Made by a program: the position numbers and the translations under genes. From Nitrosopumilaceae archaeon (GTDB lineage Archaea > Thermoproteota > Nitrososphaeria > Nitrososphaerales > Nitrosopumilaceae): DNA of 64,000 bases. Under the pieces are notes generated by a model. That model made no database searches and was not told the origin of the DNA. It saw only the letters and a program-made list of their open reading frames with translations. Of this stretch, positions 6,565 to 25,796 are shown in pieces. The DNA lies in NCBI GenBank assembly GCA_965200155.1, contig CBDATR010000010.1:320001-384000 (forward strand). The letters run 5' to 3'. Each line of letters opens with the position of its first letter. Position 1 is the stretch's first letter.

Positions 6565-6756
6565 ACCATATCTCGTCCTCAATCGTTCTATGGAAGCGCT
6601 CCAGTTTACCATTTGTCTGCGGGTGGCATGGCCTGGAATTGATTAGTATGATGTCTTGATCCAGCAGTTCTTCCTAGCATAGCGTGGGTTTCCAGCTTTT
6701 CTTGCCCTTTTATTGTCCTACGAAACACGCGCCGTTATCAGATAGCATGGATGCAG

Positions 6757-6864
6757 GGGCGCCGAATCGTTTCGTTGCCCGTCTCAGTAATATGCCATAT
6801 CCTTGTAACGAACCATGATTGGAACAAAGGGCGCCGAATCGTTTCATTGCTAGTCTCAGTAATA
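6757..6864. repeat. 36-bp direct repeat flanking a 36-bp unique insert
   Basis: GGGCGCCGAATCGTTTC(G/A)TTGC(CC/TA)GTCTCAGTAATA at 6757-6792 and 6829-6864. The paralogous IS has a single copy at 16900-16935. Confidence 0.9.
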
Positions 6865-7406
6865 GAACGGCGTTCTCTGAGGTTGCATGCTCAAATAGTG
6901 CCGCCCCGACGATGCATCATCTATGAGATTCAGTCCCTCGAAGCGCTCATCTTTCATGACATGCCAGTGCCACATTGCATTGGAATATTTACGCTCATAG
7001 TGTACCCACTCTGACTTTGCAGGTGATGATCCTGCCGTACCGTTCTTTTTCATTATGCGATATACTGCGCGATATATTGTCATTCTGTCTAAGCCTCTTT
7101 GCAATACGTACTACTCCGGCGGGATCCTTGCTGTATGCTTCAGTTACCATTCGTATCTGGGTGGCGGTGATTGGTATCATGGGCCTGCCTATCTTTACTC
7201 GAGTCGTTCCCGTCCTCTGGTTCACAATCTTCGTACGTGTCTTGTTTCAGGTCTTGAGCTATTTTGGTTGTGGCAACGCCTCTTTTGTCTTGATTCCTCT
7301 GTTATTCTCTTTACCATCTGGCTTGTGCAATCTGGACTACTGTACGCCGGATCCTAAGCGGACTTTTCGTACTATTGATAGTAAAATAACAGGATTTGGT
7401 AGCACA

Positions 7407-7498
7407 TATAGCGAACACCATAAGTCTTTGACATGAAGGACGGGGATTGTATGTCAGATGTAGGATTTGTTACCGAGAAACTTATGGTGACCGCTATA
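7407..7498. mobile_element. Family-C MITE sharing TIRs with the TnpB element
   Basis: TATAGCGAACACCATAAGTCTTTG ... AAACTTATGGTGACCGCTATA, TA at both ends, located in a family-B relic (7379-7530). Confidence 0.8.
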
Positions 7499-7781
7499 GG
7501 AGAAATTACTTAGTCGACCTAGACGGTTACTCCCACCCCAGTTACACACAAATCATACCAATAGCCTTTGCATAATAATCCCCTATAACGTCACAATTTT
7601 TAGACCAAGCCACTATTGAGCGGCAGTTTTACATTGTATGCAACTTGTACACACAATCTGAAAGTCAAAGTAGTAGTGATCTGAGTTCGCGTATTGCCAA
7701 TCCTGTGCATGAATGGAGTATGTGTGAACCCATGCAATAATTCATGTACGATACATATAGACGCCTATGAATTAGGGAGTA

Positions 7782-8495
7782 ATGGGGGTTCGCATAATGG
7801 AGGTATTTACCTCTGTGGAAGGGGAAGGTATACTCTATGGTACAAAAACCCTTTTTGTCAGGCTAGCCGGATGCCCCTTCTCCTGCGGTTACTGTGATAC
7901 AGTGGAGGCTCTACCAGCCGATTCAGGAGAGGAGTATGAGATAGACGAGGCCAAAGCGTTGGTGGACGATAATCTCCAGCAACACACCTACAAGGTCAAC
8001 TTTACCGGTGGCGAACCCCTAGTACAACACAGGTCTGTTGCTATATTGGCGAAGCATGTAAGAGACAGGGGCATTCCCACATACCTGGAATCATCTTGTT
8101 TTAGTGCGTCGCGTTTTAGGCATGTGTTGCCACATATGGACTATATCAAGATAGAATTCAAGACGCCAGAATCAGGATTTGTAGGTGCAGAAGAACACGA
8201 CTCACTGCAAAACGAGGCCATGTTGTGCCTTAAGGAGTCCATTAAGGCAGGCAGGACTACCTATGTCAAAGTCGTGGTAGGGGAACAGACCACACTCAAA
8301 TACATACAGGCGCTGGTGCGCGACGTATTTGATGCAATATCTGCGCATAGACTGGCAGGTTTTACCATACAGCCGGTTTATGGCGCCGGAGCGCCGTCTC
8401 TGGCCTTGTTGCTACAGATGTATGACATTGTGCATTCACTATACCCCGATGTGCGTATATTGCCCCAAATGCACAAATATTTAGGGGCACCATAG
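7782..8495 (+). CDS. queE: 7-carboxy-7-deazaguanine synthase (radical SAM)
   Basis: EVFTSVEGEG, FVRLAGCPFSCGYCDT, TGGEP and C-terminal PQMHK. Confidence 0.93.
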   Translation: MGVRIMEVFTSVEGEGILYGTKTLFVRLAGCPFSCGYCDTVEALPADSGEEYEIDEAKALVDDNLQQHTYKVNFTGGEPLVQHRSVAILAKHVRDRGIPTYLESSCFSASRFRHVLPHMDYIKIEFKTPESGFVGAEEHDSLQNEAMLCLKESIKAGRTTYVKVVVGEQTTLKYIQALVRDVFDAISAHRLAGFTIQPVYGAGAPSLALLLQMYDIVHSLYPDVRILPQMHKYLGAP

Positions 8496-8836
8496 CGGTA
8501 CGAGTTCACCTCTAATTATGCATCGATGATACAGTGTCCAAAATTAGACGCAGGTTTATCAAAGATTATCATGTTTTGTTGCACAGATTAAATGGAAGAA
8601 AACAGCCTTGAGTCAGAGACCGAACTGCCTGCAAGAGACTTGTGCAAATTTTAGACCCCGTGAGCCATAGACACGTCAAGCCAGACTACTTTCAATGTAG
8701 GACGTCGTACATGGGAGTCTACTAGAATAGACCTTATGCGCATGATTGACAGTAACAGCCTAGGTTGCTTCAAACTGGGGTGTATTTTATGGCACACAAT
8801 CAGTCAAGCATGAACAATGTGAATGGCACCTGCCAG

Positions 8837-9166
8837 GTATGAGTTCACGTGTTTTGATCATTCACTAAGATGTATAGATTGGTATGACAATATTTTGCTT
8901 AAATACTAAATTTGCAATAAGAATCTAATGAGAAGACGCCGGTCCTATAAGGAATTGGAACTGAAAAATCGTATGAGTTCACGTCTTCCGGAATCTTGTA
9001 CACAAATCACATTAACTGTCGCGATCAGTTATGCGTAAATTTAGACACAGGTGAACTCATACCCTGTGTCTTCTCATTATTCTTATTACAAATTTTGTAT
9101 TTAAGCAAAATATTGCCATACCAATCTATACATCTTAGTGAATGATCAAAACACGTGAACTCATAC
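8837..9166. mobile_element. Foldback composite: IS66 left end + family-A MITE + inverted IS66 left end
   Basis: Both arms match the left end at 31920-32037 and 35178-35300. Outer 8-bp TSD CCTGCCAG. Confidence 0.9.
8971..9062 (-). mobile_element. Family-A MITE (centre of the foldback composite)
   Basis: 92-bp consensus, no TSD of its own. Confidence 0.93.
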
Positions 9167-9339
9167 CCTGCCAGCGCTAACGTATGCCGTGATTGCAAAT
9201 ATCGTGTAGTGGGGTGACCGGATCTTGATGACGTATATCATGTGATCTAAACGGTTACCACAAAACCCATTAATTTAGTGGATTTTCTGATGAGTAATAT
9301 TCGAATTATAATATCATGGAAATTATGGACAGATATTTT

Positions 9340-9431
9340 GTATGAGTTCATCTGTGTCTAAATCTACGCATAACTGATCGCGACAGTTAATGTGATTTGT
9401 GCATAAGATTCCGGAAGGCGTGAACTCATAC
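9340..9431 (+). mobile_element. Family-A MITE
   Basis: TSD GATATTTT, truncates the IS5 transposase C-terminus. Confidence 0.95.
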
Positions 9432-10600
9432 GATATTTTTCAGAAATTTCTTGTACCTGTTATGCTTGTGCATAATGTGCAAATTATGCAACCCGGATAC
9501 TACGAGTAGATCTTCCCGAAATTCCTCACGACTGCCATCATATACCTGACTTAATCTACGATATACCTTGAGCATACGTATGACATGCTCGATTAATATG
9601 CGCCTTTTTGACACAGTTTGGTTGTATTTCCTTTCAGTTTTAGTGAGTGATTCCCCGCCCTTGTATGAAATTATGACCTCTGCGCCGGGTAGGAAGTCTT
9701 TCATCTCCTGGTATCCTGCATCTACAACTACTGTTATCTTATCAGATGGCGGCGTGGTTTATTCTTCTAGGGACTTACCACCGAGGGGAATATCATGAAT
9801 ACGCCATAATCGTGTCTTTTTCCCTCATATACTCCACTGATGTGAATTATCAGTCTTGTTTGATGTTATCTGTACGTTGTATGGGTGGGTTTTTTGTTTA
9901 CCAGTGTACATTGCCTCCTGATTTTTTTCAGGATGCTGTACGCGTACATGTGTCCCGTCAGTCTTTATCTCCACTCCGGCTCGACCGGGAACAATTTCCT
10001 TAAAGTCGGGTGTTGACTTGATTTGTGATATTGCTTTTGCAACGGTATCGGCCGTTGGGAGTATCTTGATCAGTCCCTGCTTTGTAAACTGGATGTAACG
10101 GCATATGTTTGACTGGTTTATCTTGAGTATAGATGCCAGCAGCTCCTGCTTTGTATTGCAGCGCAGGCGTATCAGTGTAACTAAGAGTACATGCCTGACC
10201 GGAAATTTGTTCACGTGCCCGCGTTCATTTGTAAGTTCTAAGAATCGCCGTGCATCATCGCCTTCCAGGGACTCTACGTATTCTGTGAATCTGGTTAGTA
10301 TCCATTTGAACTCTTCCGGGGTGCATCCGGTCAGGAAATGAAGCTGATCCTTGCGTTCTATGATGTCATCGAGATTTGAAACGAGGGCATTCTTTGTGAG
10401 CTTCAAGTTTGCCATGCAGGTTGTATGAGTTCACGTCTTCCGGAATCTTATGCACAAATCACATTAACTGTCGCGATCAGTTATGCGTAAATTTAGACAC
10501 AGGTGAACTCACACCGCAGGTTTGTTACTTCGGCCTCGGTGCGTAGCCGGTTGTACTCTGTGACTAACTGCTCCTTGGTGAGTTCTTCTGCTTTTAGCAT
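9432..10600 (-). pseudogene. IS5-family transposase pseudogene (HTH_Tnp_4 + DDE_Tnp_4)
   Basis: LTGCTPEEF, LLVTLIRLR, TDGTH, YTGKQKTH, D(A)GYQ and RRILIEHVIRMLK motifs. Frameshifts and MITE interruption. Confidence 0.88.
10423..10514 (-). mobile_element. Family-A MITE
   Basis: Near-TSD TGCAGGTT/CGCAGGTT, interrupts the transposase 5' end. Confidence 0.93.
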
Positions 10601-10619
10601 ACCTGGTACTACAAAATTA

Positions 10620-10711
10620 GTATGAGTTCACGTCTTCCGGAATCTTGTGCACAAATCACATTAACTGTCGCGATCAGTTGTGCGTAAATTTAGACACAGG
10701 TGAACTCATAC
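10620..10711 (-). mobile_element. Family-A MITE
   Basis: TSD CAAAATTA. Confidence 0.95.
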
Positions 10712-10951
10712 CAAAATTAGGTCTTAACTTTTCTGTTTCACAAGAGTCTGTGTGGGAAAACCCATGACACTAGGTCAATTGTTCGTATCTAATAACTTGG
10801 TTTAGACGTGCAGGGTGGGAGAAGTGATTCTGCGCATACGGTCTAATGTATTAATTATTACCATAAACTGATAATGCATTTTTCTATCAGACATTGATAA
10901 GTAGACGATGTGGCAAGTAGCTCAAGATTATCGGAGAGTATGGCAGTGGAT

Positions 10952-11096
10952 CAACTTTTCATACATTACACATAGTACAGGAAATCACAATGAGGGTAGC
11001 CAAGTACAACAAGTGGGTGGACGCGGCGGCAACGTAGAAAATTAGATCACGACATGGGGAACCCGTATTCTGTCAAAGTCAGTTATGCAACAAACT
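10952..11096 (+). mobile_element. IS481-like terminal repeat abutting a 3'-end fragment of the IS903-like element
   Basis: ACTTTTCATACATTACA (to 10970), then 10972-11096 matching the reverse complement of 43-168 including the TIR AGTTATGCAACAAACT. Confidence 0.8.
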
Positions 11097-11138
11097 CAAA
11101 ATCGAAATATTTTTGAATTAGTATGCCGTGTGTATTGT

Positions 11139-11405
11139 GTGGAAGTTACGTATCTGAAGGCTATGACGGCGCATGATTTGAGTGATATGGAAATTATCAA
11201 GCGCGACATAAAACGTGGTCTTATACTGATTATTCGGGTGGGCCCTATGGCACTAAAGGATGTCCAAGAATTGCGCCATTTAATAAAAGAGCTTTATGAT
11301 GTTGCCAAAGCTGAAGGATCAGATATAGCACGTCTAGGAGAGGAGAGAATGGTGATCACACCCCCTCATGTGCAGATATGGCGCCCGCAGTACGATTTAA
11401 AATAA
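11139..11405 (+). CDS. sepF: Cell division protein SepF-like
   Basis: IKRDIKRGLILII...GSDIARLGEERMVITPPHVQI. GTG start chosen because the upstream ATG lies inside an IS TIR. Confidence 0.8.
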   Translation: MEVTYLKAMTAHDLSDMEIIKRDIKRGLILIIRVGPMALKDVQELRHLIKELYDVAKAEGSDIARLGEERMVITPPHVQIWRPQYDLK

Positions 11406-13322
11406 CTTTACAGCTTCCTGAACTTGTGGGTTGTGGGTAGGAATCTTGTACATTCTTCTTATGTTCAATACCAGACTCTCTGATTTTCGCCTTTCCCCAT
11501 GGTTTACCAGAACACGACGAAGCTTGGGGCGCATCTTTTGTATGAACGACATGAGTTGGTTGTAGTCGCTGTGCCCGCTGAATCCGTCCAGCTTCTCTAT
11601 GTTAGCGTTAACGGTCACTGCTCTTACCTTCCCGCCTTTTTCCAGCATGGAGACCTGCTTGGCTCCGTCCAAAACACGTCTGCCCATAGTACCATTCACT
11701 TGATAGGAAACAAAGAGTATGGTATTTTGTTCATGGGGTGCTATATTCTTGAAATACTCGAGTACCGGCCCTCCCTCTAGCATACCGGAAGTGGCCAGTA
11801 TTATTCCCGGCGAATCTTCCCTGATGGCCTCCCCGCGGGAGTCAGAGTGATCAATATTGGTAAAGTATTCTGAGTCAAACGGATTATCGTCCGTTTCCAG
11901 TATCTTTTGTCGTAACTCCTTGGCCAGGTATTCCGGATATGCTTCATGTATGGCCGATGCCTCGGAGATCATGCCCTCAGTAAAGACTGGCGCCTCCACC
12001 ATCTGGCCCGCTTTCATGTAGTGATCCACAACCATCATTATCTCCTGGGCTCTGCCTACGGCCGGTATGGGTATAAGCACCTTGCCACCATTGGCCAACG
12101 TACGGTTGACCACGTTTATGAATGCGGACTCTACCTCTTGGCGGGTGGGTTGTATATCCTCCTTTAGGCCATATGTACTTTCAATAAGAAGCGTCTCTGC
12201 CCTGGGGAATTTCCATTCAGCGGCCTCAAAGAGTATACTCTTTCCAAACTTTATGTCTCCTGAGTATACAAAGTTGTGATCTCCGTTTCCTATGTGAAGG
12301 TGACAAAGTGCAGAGCCCAGTATATGGCCCGCATTAGCTAGGACCAACTTTATGTCAGGAGATATGTCGGTGACCGAACTGTAGGGAAGTGTGATAGTCT
12401 GTTTCATTACCTGCCTGACATCCCTCTCCGAATAGAGCGGTATCTTGCCTTGGGCATTGGCAACCTTGATGGCATCAAGTTGTATGAGATTCATCATGGG
12501 TAGTGTGGGTTCACTACAGTATATTGGACCCCGGTATCCGTATTTGCAAAGCGCCGGGAGAAAACCTGTATGATCCAGATGTGCATGTCCGATAACCACT
12601 GCATCTATCTCGTCCAGTGTAATGTTGGCCCAGTCCAATCGCGGATATGCCTCGTTGGCTGTGCGCGCTCCCGGATTCACGCCACAATCTAGGAGTATCT
12701 TGGACTCTGGCGTGATTAGCAGCATACAGGAGCGTCCAACCTGCCCAAAGCCTCCCAAAGTCAGCAATGACACCTCAGCCTGTTGTGTCATCCGGGGCCG
12801 GAATATCTCCTCGCCTATCTGCTTAAATTGCTTGATTCTTTCGGTGGTGGACATCTTTAGGTTGTAGTTTATGGATTGTATCGTGCTTGAGCTGGTGGTT
12901 GTGGCCTTGCGTATCCTAATACGCCATCCCAACTCCTCGGTTATCTCATTATGATTAAACTTCGGGCCGCGCAAGAGCCATGGACGCTTTACCTCTATGT
13001 TTATCTCGCCGATGGCTCCGTCAAAGAAGGTGCCCTGCAAATCTGCCTCTTTAGGTATGTGTGACGTCAGTATTGCTTTGGCTTCTGTTTCAGATTTTCG
13101 TATGGATTGGTCTGTCCTTATCACAATGCGCTTCTTGATGGCGCTCACCAAGTTGGAGAGTATTTGACTACGATCCAGCAGAAACTTGGGCGATGTAGTG
13201 TATATTGCTATGCGCGGGCCTTCATACTCTATCTTTGTTACCTTTGCGCCCTTGGGTATCTTCTGTAATATTATGGCTATTATATTTTGGATTGGCAGAT
13301 TGCTCTCTGTTTTTTTGTGCAT
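11397..13322 (-). CDS. Beta-CASP ribonuclease aCPSF1 / transcription termination factor FttA
   Basis: N-terminal KH domains, LGGFGQVGRS, HAHLDH, AGHILGSA and FSGHSD. Confidence 0.96.
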   Translation of the reverse strand: MHKKTESNLPIQNIIAIILQKIPKGAKVTKIEYEGPRIAIYTTSPKFLLDRSQILSNLVSAIKKRIVIRTDQSIRKSETEAKAILTSHIPKEADLQGTFFDGAIGEINIEVKRPWLLRGPKFNHNEITEELGWRIRIRKATTTSSSTIQSINYNLKMSTTERIKQFKQIGEEIFRPRMTQQAEVSLLTLGGFGQVGRSCMLLITPESKILLDCGVNPGARTANEAYPRLDWANITLDEIDAVVIGHAHLDHTGFLPALCKYGYRGPIYCSEPTLPMMNLIQLDAIKVANAQGKIPLYSERDVRQVMKQTITLPYSSVTDISPDIKLVLANAGHILGSALCHLHIGNGDHNFVYSGDIKFGKSILFEAAEWKFPRAETLLIESTYGLKEDIQPTRQEVESAFINVVNRTLANGGKVLIPIPAVGRAQEIMMVVDHYMKAGQMVEAPVFTEGMISEASAIHEAYPEYLAKELRQKILETDDNPFDSEYFTNIDHSDSRGEAIREDSPGIILATSGMLEGGPVLEYFKNIAPHEQNTILFVSYQVNGTMGRRVLDGAKQVSMLEKGGKVRAVTVNANIEKLDGFSGHSDYNQLMSFIQKMRPKLRRVLVNHGERRKSESLVLNIRRMYKIPTHNPQVQEAVKLF

Positions 13323-13329
13323 TATATCA

Positions 13330-13959
13330 CTAGAGTCGAATCTCTGCCTTTTTCTGTTCGTTTTCTAGCAACCGGAATCCGTCGTTGTCCATCACTGCCA
13401 AGTTTATACCATCGCCGGTACCTATATTTCTAATAATGGCGGCCCGAACAGCTTCAAGAGCTAGCGATTTGGCATCGTCCAGTTTTAAGTTGCTCTGGTA
13501 TCCGTCCTCTAATACACCATATGCTACAGGAGAGCCGCTCCCTGTGGTGACATATGGTTTTGCTTCAACCGAACCAAACATATCCACATTGAATAGGGCT
13601 GGTCCATTCGCATCATATCCTCCCAGCAATATGTCGGCCATAAATGGATAGCCACGATTCTGGTGGAACATGATGGATGTGAGCCTTGCCAATGAATTAA
13701 TCGGAATTGCAGTGTTTGCATGCAAGCGATGCAGGTTGGCATGGTATCTTAGCGCACTCACTATATTTTGTGCATCAGCTACGCCACCTGCCAGTGTAAG
13801 TCCGGCGTGGTGATCTATCTTTTGTATCTTCATGGTGTTATTGTTGGCTATAAAGTAGCCAGCACTGGCTCTCATGTCGGCGCACAACACCACACCATGA
13901 TCCGTTTTTATCCCTACGGTCGTAGTCCCATGTAAAATTTTATCCTGTATAGCGGTCAA
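13330..13959 (-). CDS. psmB: Proteasome subunit beta
   Basis: HG/TTTVG autocleavage site, TGSGSP, GTGDG. TTG start at 13959 inferred. Confidence 0.95.
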   Translation of the reverse strand: MTAIQDKILHGTTTVGIKTDHGVVLCADMRASAGYFIANNNTMKIQKIDHHAGLTLAGGVADAQNIVSALRYHANLHRLHANTAIPINSLARLTSIMFHQNRGYPFMADILLGGYDANGPALFNVDMFGSVEAKPYVTTGSGSPVAYGVLEDGYQSNLKLDDAKSLALEAVRAAIIRNIGTGDGINLAVMDNDGFRLLENEQKKAEIRL

Positions 13960-14025
13960 AATCACACCTTTTGTAGTTAGTATACAATAATACCCTTTTA
14001 AATAACTTGTCAAAGTCCGGGTTCT

Positions 14026-15066
14026 ATGTCCGGTTCTCATGTCATGGAGCTTCCCCGGCGGATAGTGATAGGTGAGGGAAACATGTGTGATCTGGGAAAG
14101 TTTGCTGTATCCCTGATTGGTGCACGGGAGGTGGCACTGATATGCGGCCCGCATGTAAGAGAGGATATAGGATCCACGGTACAGGATTCGCTGACTCGGG
14201 TGGATCTCTCGTATAGGTGGTGTATGCCCCGAGATAATACATTTGATACAGTTAATCTGGTACAGGAAGAGATACGGGGATCTGGCGCAGTACTGGGTAT
14301 CGGTGGGGGTAGATCCGTGGACATGGCAAAGATGACCGCAAACAGACTGGGGTTGCCCTACATCAGCGTGCCTACCGCAGCCTCACACGATGGTATGGCT
14401 AGCCCCTTTGCCTCAATACGTGGGGATAAGCCACATTCAATGCTAGTTTCGGCCCCCTTGGGCGTGTTTGTGGACATATCTGTTATCAAAAAGGCTCCCC
14501 CTAGACTCTTGGCTAGCGGATGCGGGGATCTGATTGCTAATATAATCGCCGTGCGGGATTGGACTCTGGGACATCAGAGGACAGGGGAATATTATGGCAG
14601 GTACTCTGCCGACTTGGCAATACTCAGCGCCAATATAATAATGGAAAACTCGGGTATCTTCGCGCAGAATGGCCTTGATGCGCGTATGATAGTGGAGGCC
14701 CTGATAAGTGCAGGTGTGGCCTCGTGTATTGCAGGAAGTAGCAGGCCATGTTCCGGATCTGAACATCTATTCTCTCATGCATTGGACCAGATAGCTCCTG
14801 GTATAGGACTGCATGGTGAGAAATGTGGCATTGGGTCTATCCTTATGGCAAAACTTCACAAGCTGGACTGGGTGGGTATATCCCAGGCGCTGAGAGATGT
14901 AGGTGCCCCTATCAGGGCTGCACAAATTGGACTAAGTGATGAGCAAGTGATCAAGGCGCTCACGGTGGCACAGCAGATGAGGCCAGAGAGATACACAATT
15001 TTACAAGAGGTAAAACTGGATGTACAAGGCGCCAGACGGTTGGGCGAGGAGACTGGCGTTTTGTGA
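14026..15066 (+). CDS. egsA: sn-glycerol-1-phosphate dehydrogenase
   Basis: GIGGGRSVD, PTAASHDG, SRPCSGSEHLFSHALD and LHGEKCG. Confidence 0.96.
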   Translation: MSGSHVMELPRRIVIGEGNMCDLGKFAVSLIGAREVALICGPHVREDIGSTVQDSLTRVDLSYRWCMPRDNTFDTVNLVQEEIRGSGAVLGIGGGRSVDMAKMTANRLGLPYISVPTAASHDGMASPFASIRGDKPHSMLVSAPLGVFVDISVIKKAPPRLLASGCGDLIANIIAVRDWTLGHQRTGEYYGRYSADLAILSANIIMENSGIFAQNGLDARMIVEALISAGVASCIAGSSRPCSGSEHLFSHALDQIAPGIGLHGEKCGIGSILMAKLHKLDWVGISQALRDVGAPIRAAQIGLSDEQVIKALTVAQQMRPERYTILQEVKLDVQGARRLGEETGVL

Positions 15067-15338
15067 CTTTGCTAATTCACGCGTGATATCTTTCCGGCTG
15101 TGAGATGCATATTGTTATCTACGCGCCTGCAAGCGAACCATTCTGTCACTATTATTCACGTGTTCATATTCGGCAGCTGTGCATTCACTACCATTTCCAG
15201 CTTCCGGTAATGGCAAGACTTGCACATTTGAGGTGAGAACCATTTTTTGTATAACGGCGCGAGCTTATGCCTTGACACAAGTCATACTCATCGTGCGTGA
15301 ATTTATGCGCCAGCGAATTCATACACGGAACCTGTATC

Positions 15339-16031: not shown

Positions 16032-16174
16032 ACTCGCGTTTGTTACATAATGAAGTACAAAAATATTCTAGATGAAAATTCAGTCTCCCTCTTCCCGTCG
16101 GGTGACGCCTAATCTAACCCTGTGATATTTTGTAACAATTTACAAGATTGGTGGTTAGACATGAGTATGCCTAT

Positions 16175-17301
16175 TGTAATGTATGAAAAGTCGGTCCGCT
16201 AGTCATTGGCATTGCACTCCATCCATTTTGCATCATTTGCCCTAATTGTCTGGGTCGCCTTTTTATTCCTGAAGCGGCGTTTCGCCGTTATCTATATCTA
16301 GTGAGAAGTGCAATCTTCTCTCATTGTAGTAGTCTACATAATCCCGGAGACTGTCATAATGCCATATCTCATCTCAATAGTACGAAAAGTAAGTCCGCTT
16401 AGGATCCGGCGTACAGTAGTTCAGATTGCACAAGCCAGATGGTAAAGAGAATAACAGAGGAATCAAGACAAAAGAGGCGTTGCCGCCACCAACATCTCAA
16501 GACCTGAAACAAGACACGTACGAAGATTGTGAACCAGAGAACGGGAACGACTCGAGTAAAGATGGGCAGGCCTATGATACCAATCACCGCCACCCAGATA
16601 CGAATGGTAACTGAAGCATACAGCAAGGATCCCGCCGGAGTAGTACGTATTGCAAAGAGGCTTAGACAGAATTACAATATATTGCGCAGTATATCGCATA
16701 ATGAAAAAGAACGGTACGGCAGGATCATCACCTGCAAAGTCAGAGTGGGTACGCTACGAGCGTAAATATTCCAATGCAATGTGGCATTGGCATGTCATGA
16801 AAGATGAGCGCTTCAGGGGACTGAATCTCATAGATGATGCATCTAGGTGTATAGTCGGAGCGGCACTATTTGAGCATGCAACCTCAGAGAACGCCGTTCT
16901 ATTACTGAGACTGGCGATAAAGAGATTCGGCGCCCCTGCATCTAGGATAACGGCGCGTGTTTCGTAGGACAATAAAGAGGCAAAAAGAACTGGAAACCCA
17001 CTATTCTAGGAAGAACTGCTGGATCAATACATCATACTAATCAGTTCCAGACCATACCACCCGCAGACAAATGGCAAACTGGAGCGCATCCATAGAACGA
17101 TTGAGGACGATATATGGCATTATGACAGTCTCCGGGATTATGTTGACTACTACAATGAGAGAAGATTGCACTTCTCACTGGATAGATAACGGCGAAACAC
17201 CACTCCAGGAATAAAAGGCGATCCAGACAATTAGGGTAAATGATGCAAAATGGATGGAGCGGGATGCCAATGACTAGCGGACCGACTTTTCATACATTAC
17301 A
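16175..17301 (+). mobile_element. IS481-like element (16374-17301) preceded by an inverted copy of its own right end (16175-16378)
   Basis: TGTAATGTATGAAAAGTCGG at 16175 and its complement ending at 17301. PQTNGKLERIHRTI at ~17060. Frameshifted ORFs. Confidence 0.87.
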
Positions 17302-17346
17302 ATGTGATGACAATACTAATATTACTATCGACCATACTTTATCAAA

Positions 17347-18896
17347 ATGTTACAATCTACGAACAATAACAATATCGTACTTAAAGCTTTAATCGGGGGG
17401 GGGGGGGTCTCCTCCTTACACTTTCACTAGTATTAGTACCGGCCACTGATCTTGCGTTTGCTCAAACAGAAAAGGAGCATATTACCTACATGACTGTATC
17501 TGACACCACCTACACTGGTGCCACCGTTACATGGTATCAGTACAAGGTCGAGGACTATATAAGAGTCCAACCAGGGGATGATGATTATGTTAACAAATAT
17601 GTCGTGGTGTTAAGTTATGGAAATGGAACTAAAGTTCCTGATAAGACAACAACAGTTCAAGGAACCACAACACATGATATTACCGGACTGACTCCTGGCA
17701 CCGACTATGAGGTATTTGTCAGAACCACTGGAAACAACAATGTCAAGTCCAACACTAAATCCTTTAGCACAACTGATATAGATCCACCTATAATCTCAGA
17801 AAGAACGTCAAATTCTATAACTATCGAAGTACCTAGAGCTCAGCCAACAAATGGTAAATACTCACCTCTTTGTGTAGTAGCTGATGTCTTTGAATCTTCC
17901 CCACGGAAGTATATACGGACCGAATCTCTGACTGTTAATGATAAAATGACAATCACAGACCTCTTACCTAATACTGATTACACCATCAGTGTGATCAACG
18001 AATGCGATGGTCTAAGACCTTTAGAAACCTTCAATGTCGATACCTCCATCCTCAGATTCACTAATACTATACCAGACATTACCATGGACGAGGGTACAGT
18101 ACGTTCCATAAAGCTAAATGCAGCTGATTATAATGATAGAGACATTACATATAGTGTAAAGGTCCTGAACGACAAGACATTACCTGGGCATGCAGGAATA
18201 TTCGATGATACCCACCTCCACTTGGAGCCTGATAGAACAGCAGCAGGGGAATACACTCTACGTGTCACAGCAACTGCTGGTAGCGACACTAAACGTGATG
18301 AATTTGTACTTACCGTAAGTGATCCTGGTATTAATCCACCCCAAATCAAAACTCAAAATAGCACCTCTGTAACTATAGAGGTCGCCTCAGAGGACTATAA
18401 TACAAAAGACCCAACCTGTACAACCGCCGCTATCTTCAAAACCTCCTCCGGACCTTCAGGTGCTGATTTAGAGGATTTCGAATCAAACCCCTTAACAATT
18501 ACGGGCCTCTCACCTGATACTGCGTACACCATACGTGTGTTTAAATCCTGTGAACCCGATGTTGGAAGGCTGGGAATCCTACAGTTCACTACATCATCTA
18601 GTGGCAGTGAAGATCAGACATCACCTGACGATCAGACATCTTTAACACTAAGTAGAGACATAAGTGGCAATGATGTTACTCTAAGCTGGAACGACTTGGC
18701 AGATACTATCTATATCGTGGCGGTATTTGATGGGGAAAGAAACCGAGTCATTGAAGGCGGAGCGGCACGCGTATCAACTAACTCCTATACCCTCAATGAC
18801 CTAGATGCTGACACATATACTGCATTTGTGAGAACCCCTGGACCCTCAGGAACTCATACCATGTCCAACACTGTAACCTTTACCATCACTAGTTAA
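17347..18896 (+). CDS. Secreted/surface fibronectin type III domain protein, signal peptide out of frame at a G13 tract
   Basis: Several FN3 motifs (ITGLTPGTDYEVFV, ITDLLPNTDYTISV, ITGLSPDTAYTIRV). Upstream in-frame GLLLTLSLVLVPATDLAFAQ. ATG 17347 joins only if the G tract is 11 or 14. Confidence 0.85.
17395..17407 (+). repeat. Poly-G homopolymer (G13) in the signal-peptide coding region
   Basis: 13 consecutive G counted directly. Confidence 0.9.
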
Positions 18897-18957
18897 TTTT
18901 TTTCTCAGTTTAAGTTGGCTCACGCGTTCAGATGCCAACCTGGCTTGTATGAGAGTG

Positions 18958-19033
18958 CGGCAGAGCCACGGTACTGTTCTAGCCGCCCAACCACGGGACG
19001 GCATAGCCACGGTACTGTTCTAGCCGTCCAGCC
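18958..19033. repeat. Imperfect tandem duplication (period 41 bp)
   Basis: CGGCA(G/T)AGCCACGGTACTGTTCTAGCCG(C/T)CCA twice. Confidence 0.8.
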
Positions 19034-19146
19034 GTCAAAAGACAGTAAGGCTGGCGTATATCCTGTCCCGACAGAGTACACATAACGGAGTTAATGCCAG
19101 CTAGAATGTGCGGCAGTAGTGAGCGGGAATGATTCCAGTTGGGTGC

Positions 19147-19255
19147 GGTAAATAAAGGGGCGATCATTCCCGCCCAATTAGGATAGATTACTTTGAGCCC
19201 TTTGCAAGCCTCCTGAAAGGTAAACAAAGGGGCGACCATTCCCGCCCAATGAGGA
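19147..19255. repeat. 37-bp direct repeat flanking a 35-bp unique insert
   Basis: GGTAAA(T/C)AAAGGGGCGA(T/C)CATTCCCGCCCAAT(T/G)AGGA at 19147-19183 and 19219-19255. Confidence 0.9.
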
Positions 19256-19289
19256 GTGCCCACCACAACAGATTGCATACCGCCCAGAT

Positions 19290-19381
19290 GTATGAGTTCA
19301 CCTGTGTCTAAATTTACGCATAACTGATCGCGACAGTTAATGTGATTTGTGCATAAGATTCCGGAAGACGTGAACTCATAC
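19290..19381 (+). mobile_element. Family-A MITE
   Basis: 92-bp consensus, no TSD. Confidence 0.93.
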
Positions 19382-19497
19382 TCAGTTCGCGCTATTTTCA
19401 TCCTGTCGCATCAGTGCTAGGATAACCATTCTCATCTATACGCAGTTAGGGGGAATGAAGTACGGGCCAAGATCATGAAAAACCTCAAGCAGCTTGG

Positions 19498-21237
19498 TTA
19501 TTCTGAGTCAGTACCTGTCTCGCTAACACTGTCTGGTATGAGATCTCCTGTTCCATGCTTGTCCACCACTTTCTGACGTTGTCCATCCAACTGGTTTATC
19601 TCCGCTTGTTCTTTTTTGTCGTCGCTGTTGTAAATGGTCCTGATAGGCCAGGGTATGCGTATATCATATTTTTGGAACTCCTCGTATATCATAACCCTAA
19701 TGTTGGTTTCTACCACAAACTGGGATCCATAGTCCCGTACGTAGACCCATAAAGAAAAATTCAGCGATGAGTCGGCAAAGTCTTGGAAGCGCACAACCGG
19801 TTGGGCCACATCTACATGCAGGTCCTTGTCACATCCACAGCTAGCCTTGTTCTCGTCCAAATACGGACAACGCGGCTGCCGTATGAGGTGCCTCTGGCTA
19901 GAATCCACAATCTCTTTCATGGCACGCTTCCCCACCATTTGTAAGATGGATGCAACTTGGCGTGGATTGTTAAGATATGATACTCCCACTTTTACTTCTG
20001 CCGGTACAAGCCTGTTCTCCTTGGTGTAGTTTATGATCTGGGCATTTACTAATTGCAGGGTGGGTATTACAGCCACAGACTCGTATAATGCATCCATTAC
20101 GTATGTTACCCGGGGGGTTATTTTGTACACATTTCCAATATATCCGCTCTCCAGACGAACCCGATCCCCCTCTATAAACACCCTATCTTTGCGTATCACG
20201 ATATATGCAAAGTAATTCTGCATAGTATCCTGTAGCGCCAAACCCAAACCGATGGAAAATCCTCCCGTGGCCGTGGCCAGAACAAACAAGTCTATGCCCC
20301 ACCATGCGGCCACCCCCAGTACGGTGGCGATAAAAATGCCTATTGGGAGTATCTGTCTTACCGATAGTGGTGTCTCCTTGCGTTTTTTTAGGGCATATCC
20401 TGGCGGCCTGTTGCCTGGCATTACCGGTTCATACCCGTGTGTTCTCTTCTCATTCCTCCATATGTCTATGGGAAATATTTCTGCCGGACGCGCATCAGGT
20501 CTTAATTTAAGCCCGGACTGGTTGTTTCCGGAAACACAATCCTTGTAATATTTTGCATATTTCTTGCGCTCTGACTCCTTCCATGTCTCATATGGATCTT
20601 CAACTAGGGCCTCATAACCGCCTATGGGATTTCCCTTAGACGTACGGTATCTCTCCAGACGCTCTCTTCCCTCTTTGGTCTCTAACAGGTCCTGAAACAT
20701 TTTTTCTCCCATATCTACAGGCGCCTTATGGGGAGGGACCCATCGATATAATTTATGAAATAGATCACCCTCGTCATCCACAAATCCTCTCAGCCCAAAC
20801 CAGGCGTTAAAATCACTTTCTTCTAATTCTGATTTCTCCCGTTTGTTCATTATTATGGGAATGAGATGAGCTACGGTATAACCAACCACTAACACATTAA
20901 ACGTGTCCAGTATCTTGGCGAACGTATCCTTTATGGAGAGACCGTGTACCCCCTCTGGAAATGTGTATATCTGTATATATAGATTTATAGAAGTAATCAA
21001 AGCAATTGCGAATAGCGGCAGGGCAGCCCGTCGCAAGAAGCGAGAGACGTGGGGCCTTCTGTAATACAACTCCCTGGAAGTTATCCAGAACGAGAATCTT
21101 CTATACGCCACGGTGATGCCTATCATACCTACAATCAAAATTACAAAGGCGATCTGTATTGATGTGGATGATACTATGAGGTCCCAAACATTTTCAAACT
21201 CAGTGACAGATAACTGGGCAATCTCTTCCTCAACCAT
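19498..21237 (-). CDS. MscS-family mechanosensitive channel with large cytoplasmic insertion
   Basis: IGLGLALQDTMQNYFA, FIEGDRVRL..GYIGNV, F.DFADSSLNF and IRIPWP. Confidence 0.9.
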   Translation of the reverse strand: MVEEEIAQLSVTEFENVWDLIVSSTSIQIAFVILIVGMIGITVAYRRFSFWITSRELYYRRPHVSRFLRRAALPLFAIALITSINLYIQIYTFPEGVHGLSIKDTFAKILDTFNVLVVGYTVAHLIPIIMNKREKSELEESDFNAWFGLRGFVDDEGDLFHKLYRWVPPHKAPVDMGEKMFQDLLETKEGRERLERYRTSKGNPIGGYEALVEDPYETWKESERKKYAKYYKDCVSGNNQSGLKLRPDARPAEIFPIDIWRNEKRTHGYEPVMPGNRPPGYALKKRKETPLSVRQILPIGIFIATVLGVAAWWGIDLFVLATATGGFSIGLGLALQDTMQNYFAYIVIRKDRVFIEGDRVRLESGYIGNVYKITPRVTYVMDALYESVAVIPTLQLVNAQIINYTKENRLVPAEVKVGVSYLNNPRQVASILQMVGKRAMKEIVDSSQRHLIRQPRCPYLDENKASCGCDKDLHVDVAQPVVRFQDFADSSLNFSLWVYVRDYGSQFVVETNIRVMIYEEFQKYDIRIPWPIRTIYNSDDKKEQAEINQLDGQRQKVVDKHGTGDLIPDSVSETGTDSE

Positions 21238-21651
21238 GATCTTGTGGTGGCAATGTTGAATACAAAAGTTTGGTCTATCCGTAAAAACAAACATGTTTTC
21301 GAAATTTGTTTATTCGCAAACATACTGTGTGATTAAACAAACCAATGCGAGAATTTACTGGTAGCCATTCCGGCAATCCATGTCGAGACAGCGTTCATGT
21401 CATAACATACATGTCTGATTGATCGGCAGGCTTGAGCAAGACTCCCAGAACACGCGGATACCGGAATTGCCTCATACCGATACAAGTCATATTGCCCCAG
21501 TTTGGCGCAGCAACAGGATCCCTGTGATTCTGGTCGTTGTCTGGTGTATGTGGGCAGCCGATATCATAGGTGTGGCTATTGTCTCTGCATGGCGAGACTT
21601 GAATAACTATCATACGTGACATTTAATAATGATTCTTGGTTTACTGATATA

Positions 21652-22992
21652 GTGACCTATCAGACTACTGTGTGGACGGATTCTCCAAACATAAGCTCAT
21701 ACACCTTGGCTAACTTTCGTAGCATACCGCAGATTGCCGCATTGCCCGAAGAGAAACAGTTTGAGATGGAGGTGGTAGGTAACGTATTACCATTTAAGGC
21801 CAACAACTATGTAGTTGAGCAGCTCATAGACTGGGATAATATGTACCAAGATCCCATGTTTGTCCTTACGTTTCCGCAAAAGGGTATGTTAAAGCCGGGT
21901 CACTTTGAACAAATGGCATCCACGCTCCGGCAAGGGGCAAGCAGAAAGGAAGTGTCTGAGGTGTCTAATGAAATTAGGCTACAACTAAACCCCCATCCTG
22001 CAGGCCAGATGGAGCTTAACGTACCGCAATTGAAGGATGGTACGCGGTTATACGGCATGCAGCACAAATACAAGGAGACATGCCTATTCTTCCCCAGCCA
22101 AAGTCAGACCTGTCATGCGTATTGCAGCTTTTGCTTCCGTTGGCCACAGTTTGTAGGTATGGGTGACATGAAATTTGCCATGAAAGAGGTGGAGCAGGTC
22201 ATACAATATGTTAGGGAACACTCTGAGATATCTGACATACTATTCACCGGTGGGGACCCCATGATCATGAAGTCCTCCATATTTGCTGCGTATATAGATG
22301 CCATACTTGATGCAGCCCTTCCAAACCTGAGGACTATCCGGATAGGAACCAAGGCGTTGTCTTACTGGCCATACAAATTCCTCACGGATCCAGATGCGGA
22401 TATTCTCCTGAACACCTTTGAGAAGATCACTGCCCGGGGACTGCATTTGGCCATGATGGCACACTTTAACCACCCACGGGAAATGGAGACAACTGCCTTG
22501 GCTAGAGCTGTTAAGGCCGTGCGTCGTACTGGGGCCCAGATACGAACTCAATCGCCCCTGCTGGCACATATCAACGATGATGGGGATCTCTGGGCTGGAA
22601 TGTGGCGGAACCAAGTTCGTATGGGTTGTATTCCATACTACATGTTTGTGGTACGAGACACAGGCGCTCAACACTTTTTCGGAGTTCCGTTGGTACGCGC
22701 CTATGGCATATTTCGTCATGCATACCAGCAAGTTAGTGGCTTGGGGAGGACAGTACGTGGCCCTAGTATGTCTGCTACTCCGGGTAAAGTACAGATTGAC
22801 GGCACTCCTACAATAAATGGCCAAAAGGTGCTACAGCTTAGATTTTTGCAGGGGCGCAATCCTGACTGGGTACAGAGACCCTTCTTTGCCAAATACGATG
22901 AGAATGCAATATGGCTTGACGATCTAACACCCGCGTTTGATGATTCCTTCTTCTTTGAGGATGAAATGTCTAGGCTAAAAAAATCAAGCTAG
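21652..22992 (+). CDS. KamA-family radical SAM protein (lysine 2,3-aminomutase-like)
   Basis: HKYKET, CHAYCSFCFR, TGGDP, IRIGTK, HFNHPRE and QSPLL. Confidence 0.9.
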   Translation: MTYQTTVWTDSPNISSYTLANFRSIPQIAALPEEKQFEMEVVGNVLPFKANNYVVEQLIDWDNMYQDPMFVLTFPQKGMLKPGHFEQMASTLRQGASRKEVSEVSNEIRLQLNPHPAGQMELNVPQLKDGTRLYGMQHKYKETCLFFPSQSQTCHAYCSFCFRWPQFVGMGDMKFAMKEVEQVIQYVREHSEISDILFTGGDPMIMKSSIFAAYIDAILDAALPNLRTIRIGTKALSYWPYKFLTDPDADILLNTFEKITARGLHLAMMAHFNHPREMETTALARAVKAVRRTGAQIRTQSPLLAHINDDGDLWAGMWRNQVRMGCIPYYMFVVRDTGAQHFFGVPLVRAYGIFRHAYQQVSGLGRTVRGPSMSATPGKVQIDGTPTINGQKVLQLRFLQGRNPDWVQRPFFAKYDENAIWLDDLTPAFDDSFFFEDEMSRLKKSS

Positions 22993-23139
22993 GCTTCCGG
23001 TTTTCCGAATATCTGTACAGATTTTTAAAGTATATCTCATCATTATACTCGCTGGGATAATGGTAGAAATCCACGCTCCCCTTTCTACATGACTCACGTA
23101 TGCTTTCTAGTACGAGATAGTAAATTACATCCTCTAGTG

Positions 23140-23305
23140 GTGATCGTTTAGGTCACTCTTTCACATACGACGCCAAGGTGGAGGCTAACTCCTGTTATTT
23201 CACTAGCATAGCATGGCGACACGGTATAGGGCTGGCGGTGGCTATTCCCTACCTGATTTTGTACCAGAAAAACACGCCTTAATTCGGAGCGACCTAAACG
23301 GTTAC
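23140..23305. mobile_element. Family-B MITE
   Basis: GTGATCGTTTAGGTCAC...GCGACCTAAACGGTTAC. Confidence 0.72.
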
Positions 23306-23348
23306 TACACTATGCCTATGATTTAATAGCGCCATCGGATAATTCATA

Positions 23349-23558
23349 ATGATGCGAGACAGGAAGGCGAGGGTAAAGCTTCTTGTGCTACTGGGAATAA
23401 TCTGGATTGTAGTCACGTTGCCTCTTCCTTGGGTGGTGGGAAATCCGGATGTACCTGAGACACAATTGTATAACATATTGGGCATAATAGGAATAATATC
23501 GGTCCCGTTCGTAATGCTTGCGGCAGTTTGGACCCTTAAGCCAGAGCTGACCACATAA
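23349..23558 (+). CDS. Small two-TM hypothetical protein
   Basis: 69 aa, two hydrophobic helices, stop overlaps the cysQ start. Confidence 0.7.
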   Translation: MMRDRKARVKLLVLLGIIWIVVTLPLPWVVGNPDVPETQLYNILGIIGIISVPFVMLAAVWTLKPELTT

Positions 23559-24379
23559 TGTCCGCTCCTACAATAGAAGTAGGATCGTACATGGAGACTG
23601 CCATAAAATCTGCCCGAGAGGGAGGACAAGCTATAATGGACTTGTATGACTCGGATTTAAAATATACAAGTAAAAGTGACAGTTCTCCAGTAACAAACGC
23701 TGACTTGGCCAGCAATAGTGTCATAAAGAAGGTCTTGGCAAGGACAAACATACCCGTACTCTCTGAGGAGGATGCAGACTCCGACACGCGCTTGGGCTCA
23801 GATATCATATGGGTAGTGGATCCGCTGGACGGAACACTGGATTTTCTTGAGCATACAGGTGAATTCACAGTGATGGTGGCTCTGGTACAAAACACCCGAC
23901 CAACCCTTGGCGTCATATACTGGCCGGATAATGATATACTATATGCCGCTTGGACGGGTGGTGGTGCATGGCGCCACGATAGATCCGGATGGGGCAAGAT
24001 TGGAGTGAAGAAGACCGCATCTTTACCATACTGCACTTTGGTGACCTCAAGACACCACATTACCGAGTCTGAGGAGAAATTCATTAACTCGTTGGGCTTT
24101 GGGGATAGGCGGACTCTTGGAAGTTCTTTAAAAGTTGTTGATATCTGCTCCGCCCAAGCTGATGCCTACTTTACTTTTACTGATAAAATGAAAGAGTGGG
24201 ATACCGCGGCATCATGCTGCATACTGCATGAAGCCGGTGGGAAAATGACCGATATGAATGGCAATCCCTTATTCTATAATGATGCTGATGTATTTCATCG
24301 CAATGGCATACTGGCTACCAATGGGGTAGTACATGATCACATTTTGCGCAGATATCGGGAATTACAGCAGGCTTCGTGA
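23558..24379 (+). CDS. cysQ: 3'(2'),5'-bisphosphate nucleotidase
   Basis: SPVTNAD, LSEE, WVVDPLDGT, GSSLK and EWDTAA. Confidence 0.93.
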   Translation: MSAPTIEVGSYMETAIKSAREGGQAIMDLYDSDLKYTSKSDSSPVTNADLASNSVIKKVLARTNIPVLSEEDADSDTRLGSDIIWVVDPLDGTLDFLEHTGEFTVMVALVQNTRPTLGVIYWPDNDILYAAWTGGGAWRHDRSGWGKIGVKKTASLPYCTLVTSRHHITESEEKFINSLGFGDRRTLGSSLKVVDICSAQADAYFTFTDKMKEWDTAASCCILHEAGGKMTDMNGNPLFYNDADVFHRNGILATNGVVHDHILRRYRELQQAS

Positions 24380-24877
24380 TCTCAGAAAGTCCATTACTTG
24401 ACCTGAGCTCTCCTCTAGCGTGTCTGTCTCTGTATCCAGGGTTATGTCTGGATTGTCCGGGGCCTCATATGGGTCATCTATGCCAGTAAAGCCCTTTATT
24501 TCGCCCCTGCGCGCTTTTGCGTACATTCCCTTGACATCCCTCTCTTCACATTTGGCCAAGGAACATCGTACGTAGCACTCCGCGAACTGTTCTCCAGCGT
24601 CTACCACACTACGGGCATCACTACGATTGTCTTTGTATGGTGATACAAGAGACACTACTGAAGGCACGCCGTGTTTCAGGAGAAGTTTGGCCAAATATGC
24701 GACGCGATGGTTGTGTTCATCGCGGCCTGCCTTGGAAAAGTCCTTGGGGGAGAACCATTCCCGCAATTCATCGCCGTCCAGCATGGCCAGATTTGGTATA
24801 TCCTTTTGTAGACGTCTCACAATGGTACTCTTTCCAGAACAGGGCAATCCTGTCATCCATAACACGAAAGGTTTCAC
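24362..24877 (-). CDS. cysC: Adenylyl-sulfate kinase
   Basis: WMTGLPCSGKST, LDGDELR, RDVKGMYAKAR.GEIKGFTGIDDPYEAP. Confidence 0.97.
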   Translation of the reverse strand: MKPFVLWMTGLPCSGKSTIVRRLQKDIPNLAMLDGDELREWFSPKDFSKAGRDEHNHRVAYLAKLLLKHGVPSVVSLVSPYKDNRSDARSVVDAGEQFAECYVRCSLAKCEERDVKGMYAKARRGEIKGFTGIDDPYEAPDNPDITLDTETDTLEESSGQVMDFLRSRSLL

Positions 24878-24901
24878 AACAAGTCACAAGCATACGGCTT
24901 T

Positions 24902-25456
24902 TTATTCCTTGAGCCACTTACAACCTTCCAGATACGACAAGTCCTGTAGCATATCATTGAGTCGCGCTATGTCTACTCCTGACTCGTAAAAGTGCTCATA
25001 CATCTCCCGTTCTTCCTCCACGGTAAGCACAGACTCCTCTACAGTGTCGAAGAATTTTTCCTCCTTCTCCATATGGTCTTTTAGGTATATGGCATAGGTT
25101 CTAAGAAATCGTCCTATTGGCTCTCTGCTGTTGTGTCCTCTCTTCCACTGTTCCAGATATTTTGATATATTTGCAGATATGCGTCGTGAAAATTCATGCT
25201 CGATAAGGAGCTTGCGAATGTCCTTGTCATGTTCTCCATATCCCGCTACACAGGGAAAGTATGCATTCTCTTCTACTGCATAATGTACCGTATACAGAAA
25301 TCCGTCCATTATGCGGGTCATGCGCTCGATGTCCTCTAGTGGTATTTCATACCCATCTGCCAGTCTTTCTTGGCAGACCCAGACAATCTTTTCAAGACGC
25401 CGCAGGTGGCGGTGATCCTCCCGAAGGGCATTGGTAGCGCGCATGTTGACTGTCAT
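24902..25456 (-). CDS. Hemerythrin-domain protein
   Basis: LREDH, H...EE..YFP, EH and H..KEE..FF HHE motifs. Confidence 0.88.
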   Translation of the reverse strand: MTVNMRATNALREDHRHLRRLEKIVWVCQERLADGYEIPLEDIERMTRIMDGFLYTVHYAVEENAYFPCVAGYGEHDKDIRKLLIEHEFSRRISANISKYLEQWKRGHNSREPIGRFLRTYAIYLKDHMEKEEKFFDTVEESVLTVEEEREMYEHFYESGVDIARLNDMLQDLSYLEGCKWLKE

Positions 25457-25685
25457 ACGATGAACTCCATAAGTATTTGCATACACAAATCTTGTTTAAG
25501 CATACTAAAATTAGGTCGCACTAAGATATGACGATCATAGAACAAGTTTACGTCTTAATTAGCACACAAATCGTAACGCTGGTACTATCTGTCGTGCGTA
25601 AATTTAGACAATGGCTAACACAAATCGAGTAATGACATGTTGGCGTGCAGATTATGATATCTATCTTTCTGGTTACTGGAGCAGT

Positions 25686-25796
25686 ATTGCTGCCCCCATC
25701 TATTCGGGATGCGACATGTGGGTTGTTTTTGGCCTGCGCGGCTCTCTTTGGGCTGGCGGATTGCTGCCCCCATCTATTCGGGATGCGACATGTGGG
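25686..25796. repeat. Perfect 37-bp direct repeat flanking a 37-bp unique insert (CRISPR-like repeat-spacer-repeat, no cas genes in the window)
   Basis: ATTGCTGCCCCCATCTATTCGGGATGCGACATGTGGG at 25686-25722 and 25760-25796. Confidence 0.92.

Follow-up and report, generated by a model that had tools for sequence, protein, structure and literature searches.

The 64,000-nucleotide stretch of DNA analysed here, in the following called the window, covers positions 320001-384000 of contig C10 in the genome of a Nitrosopumilaceae archaeon that is sponge-associated and oxidises ammonia (genome G000; 2.38 Mb in 51 contigs, 87.6% complete). The genome carries archaeal amoA, and TFIIB marks the organism as an archaeon. 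The window contains three short units, in each of which a sequence of 36 to 37 bp occurs twice around an insert of 35 to 37 bp, and they belong to a population of 69 such units that is found throughout the genome. [quoted passage not shown] This explanation draws on the observed anatomy and dimensions of the units, the distant origin of many inserts, the existence of empty sites and of insertion hot spots, and the presence of the enzyme genes. An initial annotation of the window had suggested that a Cas1-type integrase scattered single-spacer 'neo-arrays' over the genome, and this idea is supported by the approximately 69 units, by their dimensions, which match those of the resident array, and by the presence of Cas4g/Cas1g and Cas2 on contig C9.

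Unit 1 consists of a 36-bp target (left copy, 6757-6792), an insert of 36 bp (6793-6828) and a right copy (6829-6864), which differs from the left copy at three positions. It is located within one copy of a high-copy repeat element and has a TFIIB gene on one side and a radical-SAM gene on the other. Unit 2 comprises a 37-bp target that is a member of a repeat family (left copy, 19147-19183), an insert of 35 bp (19184-19218) and a right copy (19219-19255), again with three mismatches; an fn3-domain gene lies on one side and an MscS-like gene on the other. The repeat surrounding unit 2 is duplicated on contig C35, complete unit 2 included. Unit 3 is found in unique intergenic DNA between a hemerythrin-domain gene and a large tandem-repeat open reading frame (ORF), and its 37-bp target (left copy, 25686-25722; right copy, 25760-25796) encloses an insert of 37 bp (25723-25759). 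Judged by its two identical copies, unit 3 is a young event. The initial annotation had given the same coordinates and the same length patterns of duplication, insert and duplication (36/36/36, 37/35/37 and 37/37/37), which a second reading reproduced exactly, with 3, 3 and 0 mismatches; its statement that the three duplicated sequences are unrelated to each other also holds. All three units lie outside recognisable genes, and the short ORFs that overlap them have no Pfam match.

The near-constant lengths of duplication and insert, which had been noticed at these three loci, turned out to be a property of the whole genome. A seed-and-extend scan of the whole assembly for direct repeats at all offsets gave a sharp peak at 72-75 bp instead of a broad or unpeaked distribution. 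Of the hits in this peak, 284 represent a single canonical CRISPR array on contig C9, and the remainder are isolated pairs on twelve contigs. An X-drop scan delimited 69 isolated units in the 2.38-Mb genome; contigs C2, C8, C26, C29, C32, C38 and C40 and a tandem protein repeat (C10:346000-350200) had been left out before this count. The density of about three units per 64 kb suggested by the window is hence corrected to a genome average of about 1.9. Duplications of 37 bp (32 units) and 36 bp (21 units) predominate, followed by 38 bp (5 units) and other lengths (11 units). The inserts are 35 to 37 bp long in 51 of the 69 units (35 bp, n=18; 36 bp, n=17; 37 bp, n=16; other lengths, n=18), and the resulting periods are 71 bp (n=5), 72 bp (n=32), 73 bp (n=18), 74 bp (n=8) and 75 bp (n=6). 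Periods divisible by three are over-represented in comparison with the canonical array (38/69 vs 101/287, p = 0.004). In 48 of the 69 units both copies are identical, and three loci have been extended to three or four repeats. The duplicated sequences comprise 52 distinct ones, none of which is related to the canonical repeat.

A window-based scan for pairs with at least 30/32 identity at offsets of 50-99, from which the canonical array, C10:346000-350200 and contigs shorter than 12 kb were excluded, detected 5, 29, 19, 8 and 6 isolated pairs at offsets 71 to 75. These 67 pairs stand against a mean of 0.74 pairs per other offset (Poisson p ~5e-59). When the threshold was lowered to 22/32, 109 pairs were found at offsets 71-75 versus 3.6 per other offset, which is up to approximately 90 above background; older and more diverged events therefore probably exist too. 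The seven small contigs mentioned above, together with other short ones (35-42% GC), carry microsatellite-like and minisatellite repeats; they look different from the main genome (47% GC) and could be contaminating DNA in the bin, from the host or another source.

The initial annotation had found no cas gene in the window and had left the enzyme without a name. The module that can now be proposed lies outside the window, on contig C9, where both a Cas1-family gene and a canonical array are present and match the units in dimensions. The array (C9:71011-92015) is composed of 288 repeats of 36 nt (ATTTCCGCAGCCTAACGGTTGCGGCCTCATTGAAGG) and 287 spacers of 35-39 nt (mode 37), 248 of which measure 36-38 nt, so that its periods are 72-74. 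Both lengths of the units, the duplication of 36-37 bp and the insert of 35-37 bp, thus equal the repeat and spacer dimensions of the resident array. Directly upstream of it, an uninterrupted Cas4g/Cas1g fusion of 549 amino acids (NCBIfam, 710.7 bits; cut-off 560) is encoded beside a Cas2 of 91 amino acids, which also scores above its curated cut-off. The far side of the array is occupied by csb1/cas7g, csb2, cas3g and a Cas3-extension gene, and an insertion sequence (IS) adjoins csb1. In all, profile matches above curated cut-offs were obtained for Cas4g/Cas1g, Cas2, Cas3g, Csb1/Cas7g and Csb2/Cas5-6, and on this gene set, Csx17 apart, the resident system is assigned to type I-G (formerly I-U). 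The large subunit Csx17/Cas8g was not found in G000 by a search that also missed it in the relatives G006, G005 and G023 and that found it in G001, one of the four system-bearing relatives searched. A Cas1 query matched the CRISPR-linked locus on C9 and nothing else in the assembly. Neither a search of the canonical array in Rfam nor a comparison of its first 20 kb with a phage collection gave a match.

Genes for DUF1156 (anti-phage-associated, methyltransferase-like) and DUF499 proteins adjoin the CRISPR-Cas locus at C9:100700-105800 and are separated from csb1 by a DDE_Tnp_4 IS; the region probably represents a defence island. At C9:62000-66000, immediately upstream of the cas operon, gene fragments of a HaeIII-type restriction endonuclease and a D12 adenine methyltransferase (partial Pfam matches) are found, which resemble a restriction-modification system in decay; ectopic units are situated within and next to these fragments.

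Another match within the genome was found for 39 of the 69 inserts. After removal of matches inside other units and collapsing of copies, 63 distinct inserts were left, and 31 of these have a full-length match of 94-100% identity to a distant locus of the same genome that is not itself a unit, with identical stretches of mostly 36-38 nt; no source locus was found in the genome for the remaining 32. The insert of unit 1 is an opposite-strand copy (100%) of C10:412069-412104, which lies outside the window, and that of unit 2 is an opposite-strand copy (97%) of window 55549-55583 (minus strand, 34/35 bases identical). For the insert of unit 3, there was no match in the genome and there were 0 matches in both viral_contigs and metagenome_contigs. 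The comparison with genome, viral and metagenome data that the initial annotation had proposed thus gave a source, in the genome, for units 1 and 2. The window also holds the source loci of inserts from other contigs, namely 53492-53528 (plus strand, 37/37 identical) for unit C22:6122, which belongs to the target family of unit 2, and 63947-63980 (minus strand, 34/34 identical) for unit C24:352098. Contig C10 represents 22.7% of the genome and is the source of 16 of the 31 self-derived inserts (p = 4e-4); it may be a hot region for prespacer capture.

The spacers of the canonical array behave differently. Among the 287 spacers, a single one has a genome match outside the array, and this match lies inside the ectopic insert of unit C25:4760. 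Spacer and insert overlap by 28 nt; therefore, the array and this unit sampled overlapping pieces of DNA that is absent from the assembly. In the non-unit genome, self-matches were found for 31/63 inserts versus 0/287 canonical spacers (Fisher p = 4e-27). These data also bear on the idea that the units are tandem duplications of ~72 bp, or products of replication slippage, whose middle part has diverged. The period is indeed roughly twice the duplication length; however, the inserts are unrelated to the copies that flank them, the 31 of 63 reproduce distant loci exactly or almost exactly, and the identical copies in 48 of the 69 units leave no time for the middle to diverge. Tandem duplication, of vanishingly small probability, was ruled out, since the inserts match distant loci and not their flanks. 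The inserts are neither diverged tandem halves nor locally templated, two outcomes that the initial annotation had named as refuting its idea.

For 29 of the 69 units, paralogous empty copies were found in which left flank, single target and right flank are contiguous, and in 26 of these 29 cases the flanks are at least 88% identical. In the family of unit 1, all 11 other copies listed carry a single target when read by eye, and an empty paralogue in reverse orientation, with both flanks contiguous, is located in the window at 16884-16949. An orthologous empty site is provided by the cas operon itself. In the relative G005, the stop codon of cas4/1 and the start codon of cas2 are 1 nt apart, whereas in G000 a 37-bp target that spans both is present three times around two inserts (C9:70400-70587). 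The insertion between cas4/1 and cas2 amounts to 148 bp. Both reading frames are kept, as Cas4/1 ends in the first target copy and Cas2 starts in the third, and each insert was copied from a distant locus in the genome. For the three units of the window, no orthologous or allelic empty site was found in 40 relatives and four metagenome runs; at these loci, the 40 relatives share no sequence across the units, and in the neighbouring gene their DNA identity is only ~65%.

It could be argued that mini-CRISPR arrays, ordinary or mobile, were acquired horizontally or decayed in place and left the units as their remnants, as some units have three to four repeats and some travel with copies of IS66. 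However, the 52 distinct 'repeats' each correspond to local sequence, the paralogous and orthologous copies have a single target between the same flanks, and no Rfam family was matched in window 6000-26500. The empty sites and the 52 different 'repeats' exclude decayed or imported mini-arrays, and we consider this origin very improbable.

The stretch is present in sponge-metagenome runs from two studies. Logan contigs of four runs from these two studies, one of which may be the source of the assembly, were compared over window 6400-26300. In all four runs, the contigs break off at window 25715, 30 nt inside the left copy of unit 3, and start again at 25767, 8 nt inside its right copy. Such breaks would be expected of a short-word assembly graph if the 37-nt duplication is present in the run data. 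Filled and empty alleles are indistinguishable in the run contigs because these break at the duplications; among the matches listed for the four runs over this interval, there was no row or joint with 72-74 bp left out, and the left flank of unit 3 together with the start of its target gave 0 matches in metagenome_contigs. These comparisons also address assembly or chimera artefacts of a metagenome-assembled genome, which might be suspected in an assembly of 51 contigs and 87.6% completeness. The breaks inside both copies of unit 3 in all four runs are, by the above reasoning, what a real duplication should produce, and an artefact would give no fixed lengths, no hot spots and no in-genome sources. 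An artefactual origin of the units is therefore scarcely credible.

The initial annotation had placed the units in neutral DNA, and coding sequence is indeed avoided: 23% of the units (28% with the unit removed in silico) lie in open frames of at least 150 amino acids, versus 68% of random positions. This depletion points to a cost of integration. Units inside long open frames are located at gene ends, and among those examined there was no clear inactivated housekeeping gene. The choice of targets is not entirely random: hot spots, a weak repeat-like motif and an enrichment at the cas locus were found. In the 12 kb upstream of the array, five units were counted against an expectation of 0.35 (p = 3.5e-5). 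Furthermore, copies of one repeat family may carry different inserts at target boundaries that agree to within 1 nt: the family of unit 1 received three independent inserts, an IS66 family at least six, and three further families two each. The IS66 hot-spot target is situated in the N-terminal part of IS66-family transposase genes, and two unoccupied copies with a single target are found in the window (31838-31903 and 35312-35377). Two IS66-family inserts are common to several IS copies; transposition therefore multiplied the units concerned once they had been integrated.

When the 52 distinct targets were searched for a motif irrespective of orientation, the result was 5.86 bits, in comparison with 3.81 +/- 0.17 bits (maximum 4.12) for 20 sets of random sites. 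The informative left positions of the motif (..TGC..tggCCT) agree with the start of the canonical repeat (ATTTCCGCAGCCT) at six positions; this partial overlap falls within the first 13 positions of the repeat, at its leader-proximal end. Over the full length, the targets match the canonical repeat at 13.8 of 36 positions versus 13.1 for random 36-mers (p = 0.002). A repeat element of a few hundred bp, belonging to a family of up to ~75 copies, holds three targets side by side, those of the C24:302846, C34:19810 and unit 1 families, which together received at least six independent hits genome-wide; two copies of this element are located in the window (6700-7050 and 16700-16950).

Relatives were compared in the form of 400-kb samples of three genomes of the same genus that encode an orthologous Cas4/1 (G006, G005 and G001), and isolated pairs were scored at offsets of 50-99. 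Four of the six isolated pairs in the G006 sample have an offset of 72. One of these units lies ~370 bp from the cas4/1 gene, and its 35-nt insert matches another G006 locus at 33 of 35 positions; no second match was found for the other three G006 inserts. The phenomenon is thus not unique to G000, where the units are about three times denser than in G006. The G006 genome also contains very long arrays of 75-bp protein repeats (25 amino acids) at C1:875000-895000 and 1123000-1132000, which dominate period-75 scans and need to be masked in a search for ectopic units.

Taken as a mechanism, off-target integration would start with the capture of a DNA fragment of ~36 bp by Cas4g/Cas1g-Cas2, from the own chromosome about as often as from elsewhere. 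Each 3' end of the fragment would then be joined to one strand of a target, the two joins lying 36-37 bp from each other; this distance would be set by a repeat-length ruler and corresponds to the spacing used on the canonical 36-nt repeat. Repair of the gaps would leave a copy of the 36-37-bp target on either side of the insert. Taking place at the leader, the reaction would extend the array; at any other site, the outcome would be one repeat-spacer-repeat unit with local sequence in the role of the 'repeat'. Since the repeats of ectopic units bear no relation to the canonical one, these units should yield no CRISPR RNA (crRNA); without crRNA processing, inserts copied from self DNA would do no harm there and would be retained. 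Under this scheme, self-derived spacers would be purged from the canonical array and tolerated in ectopic units. The large number of units in G000 may be due to relaxed selection in a repeat-rich symbiont or to disturbed expression of Cas2, the latter being a candidate because two insertions lie between cas4/1 and cas2.

Several observations weigh against off-target integration by Cas4g/Cas1g-Cas2. The role of Cas1-Cas2 as the catalyst is an inference from anatomy and co-occurrence. No match was found anywhere searched for 30 of the 69 inserts. A shared protospacer-adjacent motif (PAM), which had been looked for at the suggestion of the initial annotation, did not emerge: no clear PAM flanks the self protospacers (n=29), and a weak enrichment of TTN on one side (9/29 vs 3.9 expected, p = 0.011) is uncoupled from the inferred orientation of the target, with four cases upstream and five downstream. 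This one-sided TTN at only 9/29 self protospacers differs from the type I-U/I-G Cas4/1-Cas2 module of Geobacter sulfurreducens, for which TTN is reported to flank at least 50% of unique new spacers (PMC6547450). The commonest duplication, 37 bp, is 1 bp longer than the canonical repeat of 36 nt, although part of this excess is chance extension of the match. The target motif, albeit significant, is weak, and the hairpin potential of the targets equals that of random 36-mers, unlike that of the canonical repeat. Finally, the G005 sample contains no unit at offsets 71-75 among its three pairs, and the G001 sample none among its two pairs at offsets 50-99; therefore, the enzyme family alone does not produce the pattern.

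Some of these points would equally favour another enzyme or repair pathway, such as a different integrase or break repair with template switching, which makes staggered breaks of 36-37 bp and fills them with a templated filler of ~36 bp. In addition to the indirect assignment of catalysis to Cas1-Cas2, the missing PAM and the two relatives with an orthologous Cas4/1, the wealth of IS and repeat elements in this genome, including IS66, IS605 OrfB and DDE_Tnp_4 families, speaks for such a source. However, against it stand the coincidence of both lengths with the canonical array of the same genome, the enrichment of units beside the cas locus, the overlap of the target motif with the repeat's leader-proximal end, and the 28 nt shared by a canonical spacer and an ectopic insert, which show that the same source DNA was sampled. 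To our knowledge, no other mechanism combines a fixed insert of ~36 bp with a duplication of ~36 bp, and an origin from a different enzyme is regarded as improbable, if less so than the other alternatives. Casposons are self-synthesising transposons whose Cas1-family casposase makes staggered joins and a target-site duplication; they are kilobase-sized, have terminal inverted repeats and generate a much shorter duplication. In contrast, the inserts described here measure ~36 bp and have no inverted ends, and the Cas1 query matched the CRISPR-linked locus only.

Off-target integration by Cas1-Cas2 is known, mainly from over-expression. According to other papers on the study by Nivala, Shipman and Church (2018), the over-expressed type I-E Cas1-Cas2 of E. 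coli integrates off-target and creates 'neo-CRISPR' loci; oligonucleotides were supplied, IHF-like sites guided the events, and the evidence for natural cases, in two other species, is called 'circumstantial'. The units of G000 resemble these loci in their spacer-length insert, in the repeat-length duplication at non-CRISPR sites and in the growth into small arrays. They differ in belonging to a type I-G system of a wild archaeon, in comprising ~70 fixed events of which half are self-derived and some IS-spread, and in two events inside the cas1/cas2 junction. For the Geobacter module, the passages considered give 36 bp as the predominant spacer length and a naive acquisition that draws partly on the chromosome, with integration measured at the array only (PMC6547450). 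The Cas4-Cas1 fusion with Cas2 next to the leader, the 36-bp spacers and the partly chromosomal capture are common to both systems. In vitro, Cas1-Cas2 of Pyrococcus furiosus integrates into plasmid sites outside CRISPR (PMC6698737); the repeat there is 30 bp long, and the off-target sites come in pairs one repeat length apart and are similar to the repeat, especially at its borders. By comparison, the events in G000 took place in vivo and are fixed in the genome, and the resemblance of the targets to the repeat is weaker. A full-text literature search, supplements aside, retrieved no account of many such units in one wild genome, of their self-derived content or of their occurrence in sponge-associated archaea. 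Notable here are the number of events, their self-derived content, their spread on IS and the hits in the own operon.

With the ~70 fixed events, a first sizeable sample from nature is available, both of off-target sites and of spacers that escaped selection by interference. A comparison of ectopic inserts with canonical spacers of the same genome makes it possible to test self/non-self discrimination during natural adaptation, an issue of long standing. Moreover, the units present the integrase as a cause of insertion mutations and document the birth of repeat-spacer structures, their growth to three or four repeats and their spread on IS; the same scan, with the period set to repeat plus spacer, can be applied to all CRISPR-bearing genomes. 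It is tempting to speculate further, with a confidence that falls somewhat short of an even chance, that the units form an unselected fossil record of native capture and insertion by Cas4/1-Cas2, in which about half of the captured DNA is self and little PAM filtering takes place. The array would then owe its freedom from self spacers to autoimmune purging and not to discrimination at capture, the integrase would act as a measurable endogenous mutagen of the symbiont's genome that hit its own operon twice, and units carried on IS66 would be multiplying seeds of CRISPR-like arrays.

Two further features of the window are repetitive in nature. An element of ~93 bp, which is similar to a miniature inverted-repeat transposable element (MITE) and has inverted ends (GTATGAGTTCAC...GTGAACTCA), occurs in many copies, among them 10423-10515 and 10620-10712; related pieces are located at 4081-4198, 9047-9170, 19290-19360 and 35877-36010, and one copy of the element directly adjoins unit 2. 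The interval 26428-30172 contains very regular tandem repeats in long ORFs (18 bp x 54 with 100% identity, 78 bp x 11 and 126 bp x 13), and the second long ORF of this interval (749 amino acids) has Pfam matches of coiled-coil type only.

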